This document shows, one piece after another, positions 37,113 to 44,277 of a DNA stretch of 64,000 nt (the stretch's first letter is position 1; each line of letters begins with the position of its first letter). This DNA is from Bacteroidales bacterium (GTDB lineage Bacteria > Bacteroidota > Bacteroidia > Bacteroidales > JAFGHD01). Location: contig JAFGHD010000002.1 in the NCBI GenBank assembly GCA_016939365.1, positions 4,208-68,207 on the forward strand. Direction: 5' to 3'. The notes under the pieces were generated by a model, which searched no databases, was not told where the DNA came from, and saw nothing but the letters and a program-made list of their open reading frames with translations. Both the position numbers and the translations under genes were made by a program.

Positions 37113-37811
37113 TTATCCCAAATTTTCGATTTTTCCCAAATCCAGCCATTCGGAATGATCGTGACTGTAATATCCGATCCTGTTTTCTTCAGAAAGCCGG
37201 AGGTACAACTCTACAAGGGAGAAAACCTCCCTTGCTTTGACCAGCGGGAACAATTCTGGACTGATGACCTGTATCCCGCTGAAGGCAAGATGCTCCAAAT
37301 GACCCCGATACGGTCTCGTGATGATCTTCTCACCGGTTGCTACATGCTCCCATCCGGAAAGCCAGCCCTCCTCGTCGAACAGTAAATATCTGTTCGATAT
37401 TCTTTTCTTAACTGCAAGGGTTGCCAGATTCGTTCCGCTGCAATGAAAATGATACATTTCCCTGAGTGACAGGTCGGTGCTGATATCTACATTGTGTACG
37501 AGGAAAGGTTTCTGATCATCGAAGAACCAGGAAGCGTTGATCAGCCCACCCCCAGTGTCCAGGAGCCTTTCGGTTTCGTCTGAGAACTCAATACGGACAC
37601 CGAAATGATCCTTTTGTGCGATAAATTCCCTGATCTGATCGGCAAAATGGTGTATGTTGATGATGATCTCATTGAAACCTTCATTGATGAGGCGATGGAT
37701 CACCCGTTCGATCATCGGTATTCCATGATAGGGAATCAGGGCTTTGGGGAGTGCATCCGTAAAGGGCCGGAGTCTGGTACCCAAGCCTGCTGACAGGATC
37801 ATGGCTTTCAT
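37113..37811 (-). CDS. sugar-1-phosphate nucleotidyltransferase, MurU-like (N-acetylmuramate alpha-1-phosphate uridylyltransferase-like)
   Basis: From the ATG at 37811, MKAMILSAGLGTRLRPFTDALPKALIP... is the canonical nucleotidyltransferase N-terminus, and the size of about 232 aa matches MurU-type enzymes. The track ORF extends to a TTG at 37982, adding a basic Cys-rich 57 aa (see findings). Confidence 0.8.
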   Translation of the reverse strand: MKAMILSAGLGTRLRPFTDALPKALIPYHGIPMIERVIHRLINEGFNEIIINIHHFADQIREFIAQKDHFGVRIEFSDETERLLDTGGGLINASWFFDDQKPFLVHNVDISTDLSLREMYHFHCSGTNLATLAVKKRISNRYLLFDEEGWLSGWEHVATGEKIITRPYRGHLEHLAFSGIQVISPELFPLVKAREVFSLVELYLRLSEENRIGYYSHDHSEWLDLGKIENLG

Positions 37812-37991
37812 GAAGCCCGTTTTTTTTTCAGGTTTGCAAAGATTCTTCTTCCTGTCGGCGGATGCATGGCATTTTCTACAGATGAAAACCGCACTCTTTA
37901 CGTCTGATTTCAGCCTTTGTTTCTTACATGCCCGTTTTTGACATCGGATCAATGCCCGGTAAGTTAATTGAAATGTTTTCAACCTTTTCTG

Positions 37992-38669
37992 TCATAGCGG
38001 CCTGTCCTCTTCGTCATGATAGATGTTGACGTTCAGCACAAACCGGATTTCACCCAGTCTTTGAAGTAGCTCCTTAGTATCTTTTCCCCTGCGTATGACG
38101 ACCCGGTAAAAGGCTTCGATCTGATTAGAGTTCTGTGTCTTCATATTGGTCAGGTGTATTTTTCGGCAATATTTGTTCAAAAGTTCATCCAATACCCGTT
38201 CTGATTGCTGATCCGGTTCATAGGACAATTGCAGGAGATGTTCATCCCATTGGGGATCGCCGAAGTGAAAAGATACGAGTATAACACTGATGAAACAGAT
38301 TACCAGGGTACCGGTAATGGCAATGACAAACAGGCCCACTCCTGCGGCCAGGCCGACAGCCAATGCCAGGAAGATAAAAACGATGTCCTGCACATCCCTG
38401 ATGGCAGTACGGAATCGGATGATAGACATGGCCCCTACCAGACCAAAGGCTCTGGCCAGGTTGTTTCCGATCACCATGATCACCACTGCAGTGATCATGG
38501 TTAACAGGATCAATGAATTTACATAGGAAGAGGAATAGCTGGTCCCCTTGTAAATAGCCCGGTAAACGATCGCGATCACCAGCCCGCAAACCAATGCTAC
38601 TCCGAGGTTAAAGAGTACCTGGGGCCAGGAGATGGTAATGGGGTCTAATGTCTGAATCTGTTCAAGCAT
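37992..38669 (-). CDS. DUF4956 domain-containing membrane protein
   Basis: Four hydrophobic helices including the GAMSIIRFRTAIRD block I associate with DUF4956, followed by a soluble C-terminal domain of about 90 aa. The start lies 4 nt after the VTC gene stop. Confidence 0.75.
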   Translation of the reverse strand: MLEQIQTLDPITISWPQVLFNLGVALVCGLVIAIVYRAIYKGTSYSSSYVNSLILLTMITAVVIMVIGNNLARAFGLVGAMSIIRFRTAIRDVQDIVFIFLALAVGLAAGVGLFVIAITGTLVICFISVILVSFHFGDPQWDEHLLQLSYEPDQQSERVLDELLNKYCRKIHLTNMKTQNSNQIEAFYRVVIRRGKDTKELLQRLGEIRFVLNVNIYHDEEDRPL

Positions 38670-38673
38670 AGGA

Positions 38674-39441
38674 TTATTTTTCTGCGAACCAGGTGGAATG
38701 CATCAGGATAGTGCTCCGGCCGGCGTTCTTGGCTATACGTTGAGAATCAATGCAGATCACATATTTTGAAGCCGCCTGGGCCCTGAGGTCAAATCGTGAC
38801 AACAGTGGCCTCAGCCATGACGGATACTGGTGATCGAATTTTACTTCCAGGATGAAATGACCGTTGATGGCTCTCTTAATACCCGTATTGTCGAACAATT
38901 GATCCACACCGGGAAAGGATTTTGATCTGAGATTCCTGTCAAATGTGATACGGACCGACCTGTCAAATTTGCTGAAGAATGCCTCCCGCTCATACATCAC
39001 CAGTATGACCGGGCGTAAATTTTGACCGAACAGTTCAAAGAAAAAAGAAGAAGCATTTTTGCGTGCCAGGGGAACATCGTCCTGCATGAAGACGAAACCA
39101 TTGATCGACGCCTTTCTGAACAACTCCAAGGCTTCCCCGTAAGTTAGTGGGATCCTGTTTTTAAGAATGGGGATATTGTACTTCCTCTTGATCTCAAGGT
39201 ACACACGGGTATCATCAGACCCCTTGTTATATCCTCGTATCCTGAACTTTTTCCTGTTTTTGATACCTTCCACCTTTTCATAATAATAATCCAGGCGAGG
39301 CGTATCAAAATATATGGACCGGACCGTATAGCCGTTTTCTTCATTTCGGTTATTGGAATCAGAATTGACAAAAGGAATGACCATGTGCCGGATGTCATCC
39401 AGCAATTCCTCCCTTACTATGTACTTATACTCGAACCTCAC
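38674..39441 (-). CDS. VTC domain-containing protein (triphosphate-tunnel / polyphosphate-polymerase-like)
   Basis: The GTG start directly abuts the TAA stop of the upstream gene. The N-terminal MRFEYKY fits the R-x-E-x-K tunnel signature. Also VRSIYFDTP and KFRIRGY strands. The family often pairs with DUF4956. Confidence 0.75.
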   Translation of the reverse strand: MRFEYKYIVREELLDDIRHMVIPFVNSDSNNRNEENGYTVRSIYFDTPRLDYYYEKVEGIKNRKKFRIRGYNKGSDDTRVYLEIKRKYNIPILKNRIPLTYGEALELFRKASINGFVFMQDDVPLARKNASSFFFELFGQNLRPVILVMYEREAFFSKFDRSVRITFDRNLRSKSFPGVDQLFDNTGIKRAINGHFILEVKFDHQYPSWLRPLLSRFDLRAQAASKYVICIDSQRIAKNAGRSTILMHSTWFAEK

Positions 39442-40497
39442 TTAACCGGCGGTGATATTTCTCTTGAAATACTCAAAAATACTGATCTTTTGGCAGATGA
39501 TCGTACAGGTGACATGCATGCCTGAATGCCAACCCTCCGGATGATTGGGAAGCATTGCCCTTACTATCAGGGGATTGGATCCATCAACAAGGGTAATGCT
39601 CTCTTCTTCCCCGATCCAGACTGCCGGCACTGCCTGTCCATTACCCTGTATCTCGACCTCTATACCCGTCACCTCTTTCAGGAATGGAATATACTTCGGA
39701 TGAATCATGCACTTGACGATCAACCCTGATGTATCAGAAACGCTGAATATGTCAGGTGTGACATGACTGAACTGAAGTGCTCCGGTCAGCGGGGAAACCA
39801 GGAAGTATTCATCCTTCAGGGACTTCATCTTCCTGATCTCCCTTTCATATCCGGCGATTCGTTCATTGACAAGATTGATTACGGCAGGCTTGCTACCTGT
39901 CACCAAGGCATCAAGGGCTGTACGGGCAACCTGGTGGTTGATTTCGGCCAGTCTGTATGTGTTTTCCGCAAGATCAAACTCAGCCTGTGATATAATACTG
40001 TCCTCGAAAAGAATTTTTTGCCGGCTGTAGTTTTTTCTTTCCAGTTCCAGCTGTTCCAACGCGATCTGTACCTGTTGTTCAGCCTGCCTTTTAATCTCCT
40101 CTTTTTCTCCGGTTGATTCCATATCCCGGTTCGCGATCTCGACCATTTTCAGATTCTCCAGACGGAGGATCTCATTTTCAAGAAAATGAGATTTAATGAT
40201 TCCAACAGTATCGCCCTTGTTTACGATCCCGGGTTGCTTGCAGGCTTGGGCCATAAAAACGGAAGCAATGTCCCCCCTTTCAAACCGGTAATTTTTTAGG
40301 CCATATACGGAATGTCCCACATAGTTATGGATTTCACTTGTAAAACTGTCATCCTGCCCTCTCACCAGCTTCCATTCACTGGTTGGCATCAAAATTCCTG
40401 TGGCAGTAATACGGTAAGGAATCCGGAAGGGCAGAAAAAAAGGTAGTAATGCCGCAACCAGGATCACCCATAAAAAGTGTCGTCTCTTCAATGGCAT
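39442..40497 (-). CDS. HlyD-type periplasmic adaptor / membrane-fusion-like protein
   Basis: N-terminal TM anchor (FLWVILVAALLPFFLPF), barrel-sandwich-like segments (GDTVGIIKS ... YFLVSPLTGAL) and a central coiled coil (EEIKRQAEQQVQIALEQLELERKNYSRQKILFEDSIISQAEFDLAENTYRLAE). No transporter gene is adjacent. Confidence 0.65.
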   Translation of the reverse strand: MPLKRRHFLWVILVAALLPFFLPFRIPYRITATGILMPTSEWKLVRGQDDSFTSEIHNYVGHSVYGLKNYRFERGDIASVFMAQACKQPGIVNKGDTVGIIKSHFLENEILRLENLKMVEIANRDMESTGEKEEIKRQAEQQVQIALEQLELERKNYSRQKILFEDSIISQAEFDLAENTYRLAEINHQVARTALDALVTGSKPAVINLVNERIAGYEREIRKMKSLKDEYFLVSPLTGALQFSHVTPDIFSVSDTSGLIVKCMIHPKYIPFLKEVTGIEVEIQGNGQAVPAVWIGEEESITLVDGSNPLIVRAMLPNHPEGWHSGMHVTCTIICQKISIFEYFKRNITAG

Positions 40498-40563: not shown

Positions 40564-41997
40564 TTATTCAGTATTCAATTCCCTGTGCTTCAGTACTACT
40601 CTCACAGCGGGAAATCGATTCTGCATCCTGCGATAAAACTCCTCCGCGCAGAAGACGGAACGGTGCTGTCCTCCGGTGCATCCAAAGCTGACCATCAGAT
40701 GAGTGAATCCTCTTTCCAGGTAATTGTGCACAGCCGATCCCACAAGGGCTTCAACATTTCTGATGTACTCCAGCACTTCTGCATGATTCCCCAGGAATTT
40801 CCTGACCGGTTCATCCAGACCGGTCAACGCTCTGAATTCCGGCAGTCTTCCCGGATTGGGCAAAGCCCTGCAATCAAAAACAAATCCGCCGCCATTCCCT
40901 GAGGGATCAGAAGGAATCCCTGTTTTATATGAAAAGCTCTTGACTGATAAGGTCAAAACATCCTGTACATCAATGGCGGGTTCATTTTCTGACTGATCTA
41001 TTGCCTTTTCCAGACACCGCCATATTTCCGGAAGATTTACGGGCAGCCTGATATGTTCAATGATCCAGGCCGAGTTGGTCAGGGCCATTTTCATACTGGC
41101 CAGGAAATGCGGTTTTTTTTCATGTATTCCCCTGAAACCATATGCACCGAGCACCTGAAGGTTTCTCAGTAAAATGAAAAGCGGGTAGTTTTGATGGAAT
41201 TTCTTTCTGCTTGGCAGGAGGTGATTCCCGGGAAAAACATCAAGATAGTATTCCAGCAAACGCTGCCTGTCATCCGGCAGCAATGAGGCCCTTGCCTGAA
41301 ACAAAAGTGAAACCAGATCATACTGCAGTGGGCCCCTTTTTCCGCCCTGGTAATCGATAAACCGCAGATTTCCGTTCTGTACCATAATGTTCCGTGCCTG
41401 AAAATCACGGTACATGAACCACCTGGCTTCAACCGATTTCAATAATCCCGTGAGCCTTTTAAAATCATCCTCAAGTGCCTGTTCATCGAAAGGGATGCCT
41501 TTGAGTTTCAGAAAATGATATTTGAAGTAGTTCAGGTCCCAGGTCACTGATTGGGTGTCGAAGGCTTCCCTTGGGTGGCATTTTGAAAAATCAAGACCTT
41601 CAGCCCCCTTTGTCTGGAATTCAACGAGCCAGGCCACTGCTTCCTGATACAGTCGTTCACTTACAAGCGACAGCGCTCCCGATTCTTCCTTTTCAATTAC
41701 AGAGAACATGGATTCATCGCCCAGATCCTCAAGGAGGCATATTCCGCTCTCAGGGTTGGCAACAAAGAGTTTTGGAACGGGCAAACCTTTGTCAGTAAAA
41801 TGCCTTGTAAGGTAAATAAATGCTTCATTCTCGCGACGGTCAGTATTGATGGCAGCGATCACGGTTTGCTTTCCACCGGTTATCCGGAAATAATCCCGGT
41901 GACTGCCTGAAGGCGGTAACGGGCGGATATCATCCGCTTCTTTACCTTGCCATTCCCTGAACGACCGGCCGATCTCTTCTATCCCAGAAAGCGCCAT
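40564..41997 (-). CDS. APH-fold sugar kinase (AmgK-like) fused to a RapZ C-terminal-like domain
   Basis: Residues 1 to about 330 have protein-kinase-like phosphotransferase motifs (SGSHRDYFRI; YRDFQARNIMV; FIDYQGG..GPLQYDLVSLL). Residues from about 335 to 477 match the C-terminal domain of RapZ/YvcJ block for block (SFSYKTGIP..GGGFVFDCRALPNP, LTGLDEPVRKFL, SFGCTGGQHRSV, KHRELN). Confidence 0.85.
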   Translation of the reverse strand: MALSGIEEIGRSFREWQGKEADDIRPLPPSGSHRDYFRITGGKQTVIAAINTDRRENEAFIYLTRHFTDKGLPVPKLFVANPESGICLLEDLGDESMFSVIEKEESGALSLVSERLYQEAVAWLVEFQTKGAEGLDFSKCHPREAFDTQSVTWDLNYFKYHFLKLKGIPFDEQALEDDFKRLTGLLKSVEARWFMYRDFQARNIMVQNGNLRFIDYQGGKRGPLQYDLVSLLFQARASLLPDDRQRLLEYYLDVFPGNHLLPSRKKFHQNYPLFILLRNLQVLGAYGFRGIHEKKPHFLASMKMALTNSAWIIEHIRLPVNLPEIWRCLEKAIDQSENEPAIDVQDVLTLSVKSFSYKTGIPSDPSGNGGGFVFDCRALPNPGRLPEFRALTGLDEPVRKFLGNHAEVLEYIRNVEALVGSAVHNYLERGFTHLMVSFGCTGGQHRSVFCAEEFYRRMQNRFPAVRVVLKHRELNTE

Positions 41998-42315: not shown

Positions 42316-42822
42316 ATGGCAACCAAATCACCAAATGACATTTTAAAGGAAGCGATTTTACTTGAAAGACGCGGCAAGGCCTTTTACTCGAACATTGCGC
42401 GGCAGACAGAGAGTGAAGCTGTGCGTAAGGTGTTCAACATGATGGCAGAAGAGGAGGATGAGCATATCGAATTTCTATCGAGGCAATTCAAGGCGTTCAA
42501 TGAGAAGCACGAATTCCTCAGACCTGAGGCTCCGCAGGAACATCCTGACGAGGAGGTGGTCATGAACATCCTGACCAAGGAGATCAGGGAGCAGATATCC
42601 GCGGCCAGTTTCGAAGCAGCAGCCATATCTGCGGCCATCGACTTCGAGACCCGGGCGGTAAATATATACTCCGAGAGGGCTGAGCAGGCATCAGATCCTA
42701 TGGAAAAAGAGACCTACCGGATGCTGGCCGAATGGGAAAGCGGTCACCACAAGCTTCTGTATCGCCTGAATGAAGACCTGAAGGAACAGATATGGAATGA
42801 CAACAGCTTCTGGCCGTTCTGA
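42316..42822 (+). CDS. ferritin-like (rubrerythrin-family four-helix-bundle) protein
   Basis: 168 aa with paired E-x-x-H type blocks (EEEDEHIEFL and AEWESGHHKLL) in a helical repeat. Confidence 0.75.
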   Translation: MATKSPNDILKEAILLERRGKAFYSNIARQTESEAVRKVFNMMAEEEDEHIEFLSRQFKAFNEKHEFLRPEAPQEHPDEEVVMNILTKEIREQISAASFEAAAISAAIDFETRAVNIYSERAEQASDPMEKETYRMLAEWESGHHKLLYRLNEDLKEQIWNDNSFWPF

Positions 42823-42877
42823 TCAGGGCTCACTAAAACTTGATCACCAGATTTCATTAGAGGGTCACCTTCCTGAA

Positions 42878-43564
42878 ATGCCAATCCCTTTCGCTGAAAA
42901 GGTAATCCGTTTTTACGACTCACTGGTAATCCCGGAGCACCTTCCCAATGATATCGAGGTGATGAATCCCTATTTAGATCATTATAACAGGAATCTGGCG
43001 GAAGCTTTCTATCGTAGATTTTATTCGGACAACCGGCCGCGCAGGCTGATCCTAGGGATCAATCCCGGGCGGTTTGGCGGAGGTGTGACAGGCATCCCTT
43101 TCACCGACCCGGTCAAGCTTCAGAATGAATGCAAAATCCCCAACCGGCTTCCGAAGAGGACAGAACCCTCTGCCGGCTTTATCTATGACATGATCCGGCA
43201 ATACGGAGGGACCGAAGACTTCTATTCCCGCTATTTTATCTCTGCTATCTGCCCTCTGGGATTGTTGAAAAATGGTAAAAACTACAATTATTACGATTCA
43301 CCCAGGGTATTGAAGGCGCTGGAACCGTTTATTCGTCGATCTCTGCACGCGGTCTGCGGTTTTGGTATCGATCCGCATGAGGTGTACTGCCTTGGAAGAG
43401 GAGCAAATTTCACACACCTTCTCAGGTTGAATGAACAGGAAATGTTTTTCGGGAAGATCGTACCCCTGCCCCACCCTCGCTGGGTCGTTCAATACAGGAG
43501 AAATCAGTATCAGGAGATGATCTGGCTGTATCTGTACTACCTGAAGACCAAGTCATCTGCCTGA
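42878..43564 (+). CDS. uracil-DNA glycosylase superfamily protein (DUF4918 / SMUG2-like)
   Basis: The internal ATG at 42878 gives MPIPFAEKVIRFYDSL... Motifs: LILGINPGRFGGGVTGIPFTDP and LPHPRWVV. The track ORF start at 42797 overlaps the preceding gene and adds non-family sequence. Confidence 0.6.
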   Translation: MPIPFAEKVIRFYDSLVIPEHLPNDIEVMNPYLDHYNRNLAEAFYRRFYSDNRPRRLILGINPGRFGGGVTGIPFTDPVKLQNECKIPNRLPKRTEPSAGFIYDMIRQYGGTEDFYSRYFISAICPLGLLKNGKNYNYYDSPRVLKALEPFIRRSLHAVCGFGIDPHEVYCLGRGANFTHLLRLNEQEMFFGKIVPLPHPRWVVQYRRNQYQEMIWLYLYYLKTKSSA

Positions 43565-43569
43565 ACGGA

Positions 43570-44277
43570 TCAGTTCTCTGAAATAAAAACGGATTTGGCG
43601 GCTGCGCAGATGGGGCATATCCAGTCATCCGGCACTTCTGAGAATGGAGTTCCGGGAGGAATGCCCTGCAATTCATCCCCCACCCCGGGATCATAGATAT
43701 ATCCGCATACAGGGCATATAAATCGTTGACTTTCGGCAGAGAGCGTTTCCTCCTCTGTCTGCAGTTCCGATTTGTCAATATAGGTGGGGGCTCTTTCAGG
43801 TGCGGTCAATTTCTTGACATCCCTGTAATATGTATAGGTCAGGGGTTCTTTATGTTTGTCGAGCAATCCGCCGTCCACCACATCCCCGATGAACAGAATA
43901 TGGGAGCCCAGATCGAAACGGTCGGTCACCCTGCATTCAAACCAGGCGATTGCGTGCTTGGTTACAACCGGTATACCGGTACTCCCGGTCCGGTAATCGA
44001 CGTTCCGGAATTTTTCCTTTTCCCTGCCGGTATGATACCCGAACCACCCCAGGAATTCCACATCTGTGTCCTTTTCCAGAATTGAAATGCTGAATGCCCC
44101 TCCCTTATCGATGATCTCGCATGTCAGATTCTCGCGGTGGCAGCTGATGGCTATCCGTGAGGGATTTGATGTTACCTGAAATGCAGTATTCGCAATGTAT
44201 CCGTTTTTCCGCTCCCCGTCCCCCGAACAAATCAGATACATCCCATATGACATCCTGAAAAAAGCTTCCAGTTCCAT
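43570..44277 (-). CDS. flavin reductase domain fused to rubredoxin (high-molecular-weight rubredoxin type)
   Basis: N-terminal FMN-binding split-barrel domain ([30 protein letters not shown]) and a C-terminal rubredoxin with two Cys pairs ([10 protein letters not shown] ... [10 protein letters not shown]). Confidence 0.88.

Follow-up and report, generated by a model that had tools for sequence, protein, structure and literature searches.

RapZ (YhbJ) of Escherichia coli, a regulator known from textbooks, governs the supply of cell-envelope precursors, and the AmgK-MurU bypass of peptidoglycan recycling, known from Pseudomonas putida and Pseudomonas aeruginosa, has also been reported in Caulobacter, Legionella, and Tannerella forsythia. 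In the Pseudomonas route, anhydro-N-acetylmuramic acid (anhydro-MurNAc) is converted to MurNAc 6-phosphate (MurNAc-6-P) by AnmK, to MurNAc by MupP, to MurNAc 1-phosphate (MurNAc-1-P) by AmgK, and to uridine diphosphate MurNAc (UDP-MurNAc) by MurU (PMC13691567), and the T. forsythia AmgK and MurU reportedly work when expressed in E. coli (PMC10941766). RapZ and YvcJ of Bacillus subtilis carry a P-loop NTPase as the N-domain, and the function of the C-terminal pocket of RapZ and of its essential Cys247 is still unsettled in the literature (PMC7199280 and PMC9841335). The gene described here, at positions 40564..41997 (-) of a 64,000-nucleotide stretch of genomic DNA from a Bacteroidales bacterium (contig JAFGHD010000002.1; the whole stretch is hereafter called the window), encodes a domain of the RapZ C-terminal type (RapZ_C) that shares the fold of the RapZ C-terminal domain (RapZ-CTD) but is joined to a kinase of the AmgK-like type, unrelated in fold to the P-loop NTPase. 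The survey of its homologs shows that RapZ_C is a third, separable member of a kinase/uridylyltransferase cassette across phyla, occurring in fused or split form, and the system is a form of the AmgK/MurU bypass to which a third component, derived from RapZ, has been added. Databases already record the domain pair, which is widespread; the cassette role of RapZ_C is the new point. No paper on the kinase-linked RapZ_C family, its status as separate gene or triple fusion, or its link to the MupP step was found in a literature search that was thin on subscription journals.

The gene (stop codon, 40564-40566) is a single open reading frame (ORF) of 477 codons with an ATG start and no internal stops, and its product matches both PF01636 (APH) at residues 24-252 (E-value, 2.1e-12; 47.8 bits; cut-off, 23.2) and PF22740 (RapZ_C) at residues 349-474 (E-value, 5.9e-34; 117.3 bits; cut-off, 27) in Pfam. 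The original prediction, made from the sequence, that a RapZ C-terminal domain is attached here to an APH-fold kinase is thus correct, and the possibility raised with it, that a frameshift might divide two ORFs, does not apply to this intact gene. The N-terminal APH-fold kinase domain of the AmgK-like subfamily (residues 1-338; 40984..41997, -) is connected by a linker (residues 339-347; 40957..40983, -), which varies in length and sequence in the alignment, to the RapZ C-terminal-type domain (residues 348-477; 40567..40956, -). The RapZ equivalog model of NCBIfam (NF003828) gives 108.1 bits against a cut-off of 244 and aligns only at model positions 157-278 of 278, and the Walker A-containing P-loop NTPase domain of the RapZ N-terminus (PF03668) has no match in the fusion protein in the Pfam scan. 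By sequence comparison with the PDB, residues 348-473 match E. coli RapZ-CTD (5O5S; E-value, 6.6e-19) and residues 16-300 match a putative aminoglycoside phosphotransferase (3CSV; E-value, 5.7e-13). An AlphaFold2 model (24 homologs) has a mean predicted local distance difference test (pLDDT) score of 88.6 and a predicted template modeling score of 0.70, with very low confidence (pLDDT <50) only at linker residues 340-345. In Foldseek searches the C-terminal domain of the model matches RapZ, and the N-terminal domain matches 3CSV best (E-value, 1.3e-12), with choline, MTR, and aminoglycoside kinases next. Profile, sequence, and structure comparisons of the C-terminal region all agree with the domain assignment first made from the sequence alone, and every motif quoted in its support is present in the translation: SFSYKTGIP (residues 354-362), FVFDCRALPNP (372-382), LTGLDEPVRKFL (391-402), GCTGGQHRSV (439-448), and HREL (471-474) in RapZ_C, and YRDFQARNIM (196-205) and FIDYQGGKRGPLQYDL (213-228) in the kinase domain. 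As to a canonical rapZ elsewhere in the source genome, a profile search found this one RapZ_C gene and no PF03668 domain. The architecture and the membership of RapZ_C in the cassette are, in our judgment, established with near certainty.

Far from being the curiosity for which the fusion had originally been taken, the protein belongs to a very large family that spans several phyla. In a word-indexed search, 8000 of 8000 scored candidates had E ≤ 0.001, and homologs number in the thousands. Among the 120 matches listed, PF22740 is present in 120 and PF01636 also in 118; these proteins are mostly of 470-490 residues and, besides the self-match, are 46-53% identical to the query; homologs are aligned over 94-99% of its length. 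They are named in the source records 'phosphotransferase', 'aminoglycoside/choline kinase family phosphotransferase', 'RapZ C-terminal domain-containing protein', or, misleadingly, 'RNase adapter RapZ'. With the C-terminal domain alone as query, a full HMMER search gave 3869 representative clusters at E ≤ 0.001, of which 230 reach E ≤ 1e-30. One-genome-per-species contigs contain at least 597 relatives among at least 599 pattern matches, and the best 80 of these at least 597 relatives constitute the loci compared below; by record title, about 50 are Bacteroidota, 21 are Acidobacteriota, and 9 are others (Ignavibacteriales, Eremiobacterota, Gemmatimonadota, Spirochaetales, Delongbacteria, one Bdellovibrionales, and two with Acutalibacteraceae labels), most of the 80 carrying metagenome-assembled-genome labels.

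In 66 of the 80 loci, the next gene downstream, on the same strand and at a gap of -48 to +310 nucleotides, encodes a MurU-like nucleotidyltransferase. In the remaining 14, a MurU-like gene is found elsewhere in the locus (2 loci), the locus is truncated (3 loci), or there is room for such a gene but none is present (9 loci). An alternative conserved partner was sought where MurU is not adjacent and was rejected, the downstream genes being unrelated (gluconolactonase-like, PPK1, DUF3822, GT1, two lipid A acyltransferases, and RF). The association extends to gene fusion: among the top 150 domain matches, all seven proteins of 714-768 residues consist of APH, RapZ_C, and NTP_transferase domains, and both proteins of 372-387 residues consist of RapZ_C and NTP_transferase. 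Clusters of the triple fusions contain 5, 2, 6, and 5 members, which come from several sources and lie on contigs of up to 154 kb, and the 387-residue RapZ_C-transferase cluster has exactly this length in 9 of its 13 members; the triple and double fusions are not one-off gene calls. The split form is found in three genomes of a phylum sample (151 genomes from the phylum of the window, each with a completeness of 90% or more), in which the kinase (327-339 residues), RapZ_C (133-135 residues), and the nucleotidyltransferase (235-258 residues) are encoded consecutively on the same strand. A short 'stand-alone' metagenome protein (P0122) is flagged as partial, and the free RapZ_C is thus represented by these three complete three-gene loci. 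In the phylum sample RapZ_C occurs in 26 of the 151 genomes, a patchy rather than universal distribution, and is fused to or directly beside an AmgK-like kinase in all 26 matches; the RapZ N-terminal domain PF03668 was found in 0/151. In one further genome of the sample (G028, 100% complete), the transferase gene comes immediately after a gene for a kinase of the RapZ_C-linked subfamily, and there is no RapZ_C anywhere in the genome, which indicates that RapZ_C, although conserved, is an accessory that the kinase/transferase core can dispense with. Two other RapZ_C architectures were noted among the domain matches, namely HEAT repeats with RapZ_C (P0162, 570 residues, in a single-member cluster) and a 3'-5' exonuclease domain ahead of the kinase, with APH and RapZ_C (P0224, 718 residues).

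In the triple fusions and in the three-gene loci alike, RapZ_C always stands between the kinase and the transferase. Such a position could be taken to mean that RapZ_C is an assembly module, whose dimer or tetramer surface gathers the two enzymes and channels the sugar 1-phosphate while the pocket holds the intermediate, and E. coli RapZ-CTD is indeed a swapped dimer that drives tetramer assembly (PMC7199280 and PMC5737377). We regard this as improbable, because the triple fusions already tether the enzymes without need of an oligomerizing spacer, and because the strongest conservation is seen in the anion-binding loop described below, not in a surface patch.

The kinase half is nearest to AmgK, its best NCBIfam matches being the AmgK models NF045759 and NF045698 (64.7 and 59.9 bits against cut-offs of 550 and 500, respectively). 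The catalytic-loop (Brenner-type) motif Y196-R-D198-F-Q-A-R-N203 (41389..41412, -) has Tyr in place of the usual APH His, and the metal-binding 'DFG-equivalent' motif is F213-I-D215-Y-Q-G-G219 (41341..41361, -). In the alignment of 24 family members, Arg197, Asp198, Phe199, Gln200, Arg202, and Asn203 of the former and Asp215, Gln217, Gly218, and Gly219 of the latter are invariant (24/24), so that the catalytic Asp/Asn pair (Asp198 and Asn203) and the metal-binding Asp (Asp215) of the APH fold are all present. Among the 78 representatives in which the catalytic-loop motif was found by pattern, the first position is Tyr in 47, Leu in 11, Phe in 10, His in 3, and another residue in 7. The Tyr-for-His replacement pointed out previously is accordingly a trait of the subfamily: the RapZ_C-linked kinases read [YF]RDFQ[AS]RN and IDYQGG, whereas NHRDYHSRN and IDFQDA are found in the AmgK-like genes that stand alone in this phylum. 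The stand-alone genes, more canonical and without RapZ_C, occur in 30 genomes of a single family (f17), score 100.9-137.2 bits, also below the AmgK cut-off, and have the motifs HRDYH, IDFQDA, and GDASxRxYFR. Profile search of the source genome detected no AmgK-like gene besides the fused one. A Tannerella sp. genome and three Bacteroidales genomes likewise have the AmgK-like gene in the fused form only; given the Tannerella genome, the characterized T. forsythia AmgK probably belongs to the RapZ_C-fused family. The control genome of Bacteroides thetaiotaomicron has matches to both the RapZ_C and the AmgK models.

The probable pathway partner in the window is a MurU-like sugar-1-phosphate nucleotidyltransferase gene (37113..37811, -; PF00483), located four genes downstream of the kinase-RapZ_C gene on the same strand. 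It is the best MurU-like match in the source genome, with MurU NF045761 as its best NCBIfam match (132.8 bits; cut-off, 250), aligned from residue 58 of the mechanical ORF, which extends to a TTG at 37982. As the profile alignment begins at the ATG at 37811 (MKAMILSAG), this ATG, not the upstream TTG, is the probable start. The system shares with the Pseudomonas bypass an APH-fold kinase nearest to AmgK and a nucleotidyltransferase nearest to MurU, syntenic in 66 of the 80 loci. It differs in that neither enzyme of the window comes near its equivalog cut-off (64.7 of 550 and 132.8 of 250 bits), that classical AmgK has no RapZ_C, that the kinase is of a distinct subfamily ([YF]RDFQ rather than HRDYH, IDYQGG rather than IDFQDA), that the pair in the window is split by three unrelated genes, and that no MupP equivalog was found in the source genome.

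From the homology to AmgK and MurU and the synteny, we infer an anomeric MurNAc/N-acetylglucosamine (GlcNAc) kinase activity, by which the AmgK-type half would phosphorylate MurNAc and/or GlcNAc to the alpha-1-phosphate. Together with the MurU-like enzyme, the fusion would form a three-part cassette for salvage of peptidoglycan sugars leading to UDP-MurNAc and bypassing MurA/MurB. A route of kinase followed by uridylyltransferase is likely, the identity of the sugar being suggested by the same homology and synteny and by the Tannerella and Bacteroidales genomes that have the fused form only. The cell-wall salvage kinase envisaged by the original prediction thereby gains strong support from the MurU-like partner in 66 of the 80 loci and from the triple fusions, although that prediction had missed both the status of RapZ_C as a separable third member of the cassette and its cysteine-phosphatase-type loop. 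A role of the cassette as a replacement for GlmU was also considered and discarded: no match to a full-length bifunctional GlmU exceeds the TIGR01173 cut-off in the source genome (its best match, 56 bits) or in any of the 151 genomes of the phylum sample, yet the cassette is present in only 26/151 and is therefore not a general substitute. Partial GlmU matches at E ≤ 1e-30 were seen in 68/151 genomes, mostly as ORFs of about 250-300 residues comprising only the uridylyltransferase half, and none in the window's own class. The second-best MurU/GlmU-like gene of the source genome (C58:32905-34177) lies directly before a GmhB-like HAD phosphatase gene (LFLDRDGVIN), and the pair looks like part of a heptose-nucleotide pathway, not an amino-sugar enzyme.

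The residues kept, changed, and lost in RapZ_C were mapped on E. coli RapZ (from the annotated K-12 record) aligned with the 24 family members, and motif patterns were counted over 150 diverse representatives. The E. coli pocket is formed by the side chains of His190, His252, and Arg253 together with the Thr248 and Gly249 backbone, with Cys247 adjoining (PMC5737377 and PMC9841335). The anion-binding loop C440-T-G-G-Q-H-R446-S447 (C-x2-G-x2-R-S; 40657..40680, -) corresponds to Cys247-Ser254 of E. coli RapZ; Cys247, Thr248, Gly249, Gly250, His252, Arg253, and Ser254 are matched by Cys440-Gly443 and His445-Ser447, invariant in 24/24, and GCTGG[QRK]HRS is found in 149 of the 150 representatives. 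The pocket is remodeled elsewhere: G383-R384 (40846..40851, -) stands in place of the ligand-contacting His190 and the next residue. This position is Gly in 24/24, followed by Arg or Lys, and NPG[RK] occurs in 140/150. A subfamily-specific Gly-rich insertion, P365-S-G-N-G-G-G371 (40885..40905, -), lies ahead of FVFDCR and includes five residues without counterpart in canonical RapZ; its motif x[NH]GGG is present in at least 134/150. Thus five of the six residues of the pocket set (His190, Thr248, Gly249, His252, Arg253, and Cys247) are kept in 24/24, with Gly for His190 and the five-residue insertion nearby. Of five genomes of other phyla that were tested, three (two of Acidobacteriota, one of Eremiobacterota) contain both canonical RapZ and the kinase-linked form, which argues that the two are not interchangeable; in these genomes canonical RapZ reads NPHF without the insertion and the kinase-linked copy has ETGNGGG and NPGR. 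The replacement of Lys251 by Gln is not diagnostic, being found also in two of these canonical RapZs.

The features connected with RNA binding have fared differently. The 19-residue basic C-terminal tail is the RNA-binding domain of E. coli RapZ (PMC7073468), and it has no counterpart in the fusion, which ends in HRELNTE; Lys270, Lys281, Arg282, and Lys283 are not conserved. Along the RNA path of the GlmZ complex, Lys194 is replaced by Glu in 18/24 and Arg238 by Phe in 23/24, Arg211 is variable, and Lys170 and Arg184 are kept. Neither GlmZ (RF00083) nor YvcK/GlmR, the Firmicute partner of YvcJ, was found in the source genome (97.5% complete). With the tail lost, Lys194 and Arg238 changed, and GlmZ and YvcK not found, an RNA-adaptor role of the E. 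coli type is unlikely for RapZ_C in the fusion. The proposal in the original prediction that RapZ_C retains an RNA-binding or RNase-adaptor output, coupling the state of the kinase to the decay of a small RNA, is accordingly disfavored and hardly credible, the more so as the conserved partners are enzymes and not RNA-metabolism genes.

The loop C-T-G-G-Q-H-R-S conforms to the extended cysteine-dependent phosphatase signature C-x2-G-x2-R-[ST], and in the AlphaFold2 model the segment C440-x5-R446-S447 lies between a predicted strand (residues 433-440) and a predicted helix (residues 446-461), a strand-helix setting shared, like the signature, with the P-loop (C-x5-R-[ST]) of the PTP, DUSP, and LMW-PTP phosphatases. 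The resemblance has already been published for E. coli RapZ (PMC7199280). According to PMC5737377, crystallography revealed an anion site at this loop in E. coli RapZ, whose pocket takes small dianions, e.g., sulfate and malonate. Islam et al. report that C247A, and even C247S, abolish RapZ activity, and that the density in a RapZ-CTD crystal soaked with glucosamine 6-phosphate (GlcN6P) resembles a chemically transformed product (PMC9841335). Asp375 and His471, invariant in the alignment, may be regarded only as candidates for a general acid. Hydrolysis of p-nitrophenyl phosphate by YvcJ/RapZ has reportedly been observed. The complete conservation of Cys440, Thr441, Gly442, Gly443, His445, Arg446, and Ser447 (24/24) and the presence of the loop in 149/150 hint at catalysis: via the invariant Cys, RapZ_C may remove the 6-phosphate of the MurNAc-6-P made by AnmK and hand free MurNAc to the attached kinase, the same step that the unrelated enzyme MupP performs in Pseudomonas. 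The likeness to MupP would be confined to this proposed job of dephosphorylation just before AmgK, since MupP is a HAD phosphatase with an Asp nucleophile and no homology, whereas RapZ_C would use the Cys-x5-Arg loop. We put forward a phosphatase acting on MurNAc-6-P (or a related sugar 6-phosphate) as a tentative assignment, with a somewhat less than even chance of being right.

The same conserved anion pocket is compatible with RapZ_C being a non-catalytic sensor of GlcN6P, MurNAc-6-P, UDP-GlcNAc, or UDP-MurNAc, which tunes the kinase allosterically so that salvage matches de novo supply. Ligand sensing is the only activity demonstrated for a RapZ C-terminal domain anywhere, enzymes fused to the sensors that regulate them are common, and the kinase/transferase pair of G028 lacks RapZ_C as would befit an accessory regulator. 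On the other hand, binding alone has no obvious need of the invariant Cys or of the complete C-x2-G-x2-R-S loop, RapZ_C is also fused to the transferase alone or encoded as a separate gene, and with His190 replaced and the pocket remodeled, the E. coli ligand is not simply transferable. Feedback sensing, the other half of the original interpretation, therefore stands as the principal rival to a phosphatase, possible though on balance unlikely. Catalysis on a different substrate, such as hydrolysis of the pyrophosphate released by the MurU-like enzyme to pull UDP-sugar formation, or proofreading of wrongly phosphorylated sugars, would agree with the recurrent 387-residue RapZ_C-transferase fusion, with the constant position of RapZ_C between kinase and transferase, and with the small dianions accepted by the E. 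coli pocket (PMC5737377). It appears quite doubtful, given that E. coli RapZ-CTD prefers GlcN6P to close analogs, which points to sugar recognition (PMC7073468), and that a dedicated inorganic pyrophosphatase is normally present in cells.

The assignment of RapZ_C as a MurNAc-6-P phosphatase can be set against the distribution of the other recycling enzymes. In the source genome AnmK (219 bits) and MurA are present, and neither MurQ nor a MupP equivalog was found by profile search, the best of four HAD_2 genes scoring 31.5 bits against the MupP cut-off of 359, so that MurNAc-6-P would have no assigned fate unless a phosphatase feeds the kinase. Across the phylum sample, MurQ is present in 104 of the 151 genomes; outside f17, it is found in 91 of the 94 RapZ_C-negative genomes as against 13 of the 26 RapZ_C-positive ones. 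AnmK occurs without MurQ in ten genomes. The RapZ_C cassette is present in nine of these, which represent six families; the remaining one (G063) is assembled in 170 contigs, and MurQ is present in all of its relatives. A Gph/MupP-like match at E ≤ 1e-25 is present in just one of the nine. AnmK and an AmgK-like kinase occur together in 21 genomes, with RapZ_C in 21/21, and G028, with its kinase of the RapZ_C-linked subfamily but no RapZ_C, is also without AnmK. This co-occurrence of AnmK, MurQ, and RapZ_C fits the need for a phosphatase where MurNAc arrives as the 6-phosphate, but is not proof of it. Several considerations weigh in the opposite direction: related genomes are not independent, f17 dominates the RapZ_C negatives of the sample, AnmK is absent from five RapZ_C-positive genomes, generic phosphatases exist, and the G028 pair does without RapZ_C. 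Two further comparisons were set aside. Co-occurrence with AnmK alone is not discriminating (21/26 RapZ_C-positive versus 80/125 negative genomes) and is informative only in combination with the absence of MurQ, and complementarity with MupP is too confounded, as Gph/MupP-like matches at E ≤ 1e-25 are found in 19/151 genomes (18 of f17 and G137), none over the MupP cut-off. In the source genome, AnmK (C179:27940-28971) shares a contig with the most MupP/Gph-like HAD gene (C179:39374-40069), at a distance of about 10 kb; the latter reads IIWDWNGTL in place of the usual DxDGT motif I, with the second Asp replaced, and its activity appears doubtful.

The family provides a natural experiment, in which a RapZ_C without RNA-binding features operates in a purely metabolic cassette in fused, half-fused, and free forms, and in which the core activity is open to simple enzyme assays. 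It is relevant to the way in which Acidobacteriota and Bacteroidota, among the latter the Bacteroides of the gut and the Tannerella of the mouth, recycle peptidoglycan, and suggests that the AmgK/MurU tools used for cell-wall labeling may carry an unrecognized third activity. It also draws attention to a recurrent mis-annotation, members being named 'RNase adapter RapZ' or 'aminoglycoside phosphotransferase'. More speculatively, and with less likelihood than not by a clear distance, the RapZ C-terminal domain may at root be a cysteine-dependent phosphosugar phosphatase or phosphotransfer module of amino-sugar metabolism that, in thousands of bacteria, performs a MupP-like step within a MurNAc salvage cassette of three enzymes; the RNA-adaptor and GlcN6P-sensor roles in E. 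coli would then be later moonlighting, and its pairing with two unrelated domains that use ATP, either a P-loop NTPase or an APH kinase, would reflect a conserved partnership of phosphatase and kinase.

The three genes that separate the kinase-RapZ_C and MurU-like genes in the window (37992..40497, -) were assigned with Pfam and NCBIfam to an HlyD/RND-adaptor-like protein (39442-40497, -), a VTC domain protein (38674-39441, -), and a DUF4956 protein (37992-38669, -); they are not part of the conserved cassette, none of them being beside homologs in any of the 80 loci. The upstream neighbors, encoded on both strands at 42316-44277 of the window, are two redox proteins (one rubrerythrin-like, the other a fusion of flavin reductase and rubredoxin) and a member of the UDG superfamily; conservation beside homologs was seen for none of them. 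Neighbors related to polyphosphate were noticed twice, namely the VTC gene of the window, of the polyphosphate-polymerase type, and a PPK1 gene right after the fused kinase in a Prolixibacteraceae locus (L019:7608-9677, +), which may be coincidence. In a Bacteroidaceae locus (L047:6217-7071, +), the gene following the fused kinase is a weak BcrAD_BadFG match (E-value, 8.4e-5), the family of the MurNAc 6-kinase MurK, and the MurU-like gene is located upstream, on the opposite strand.

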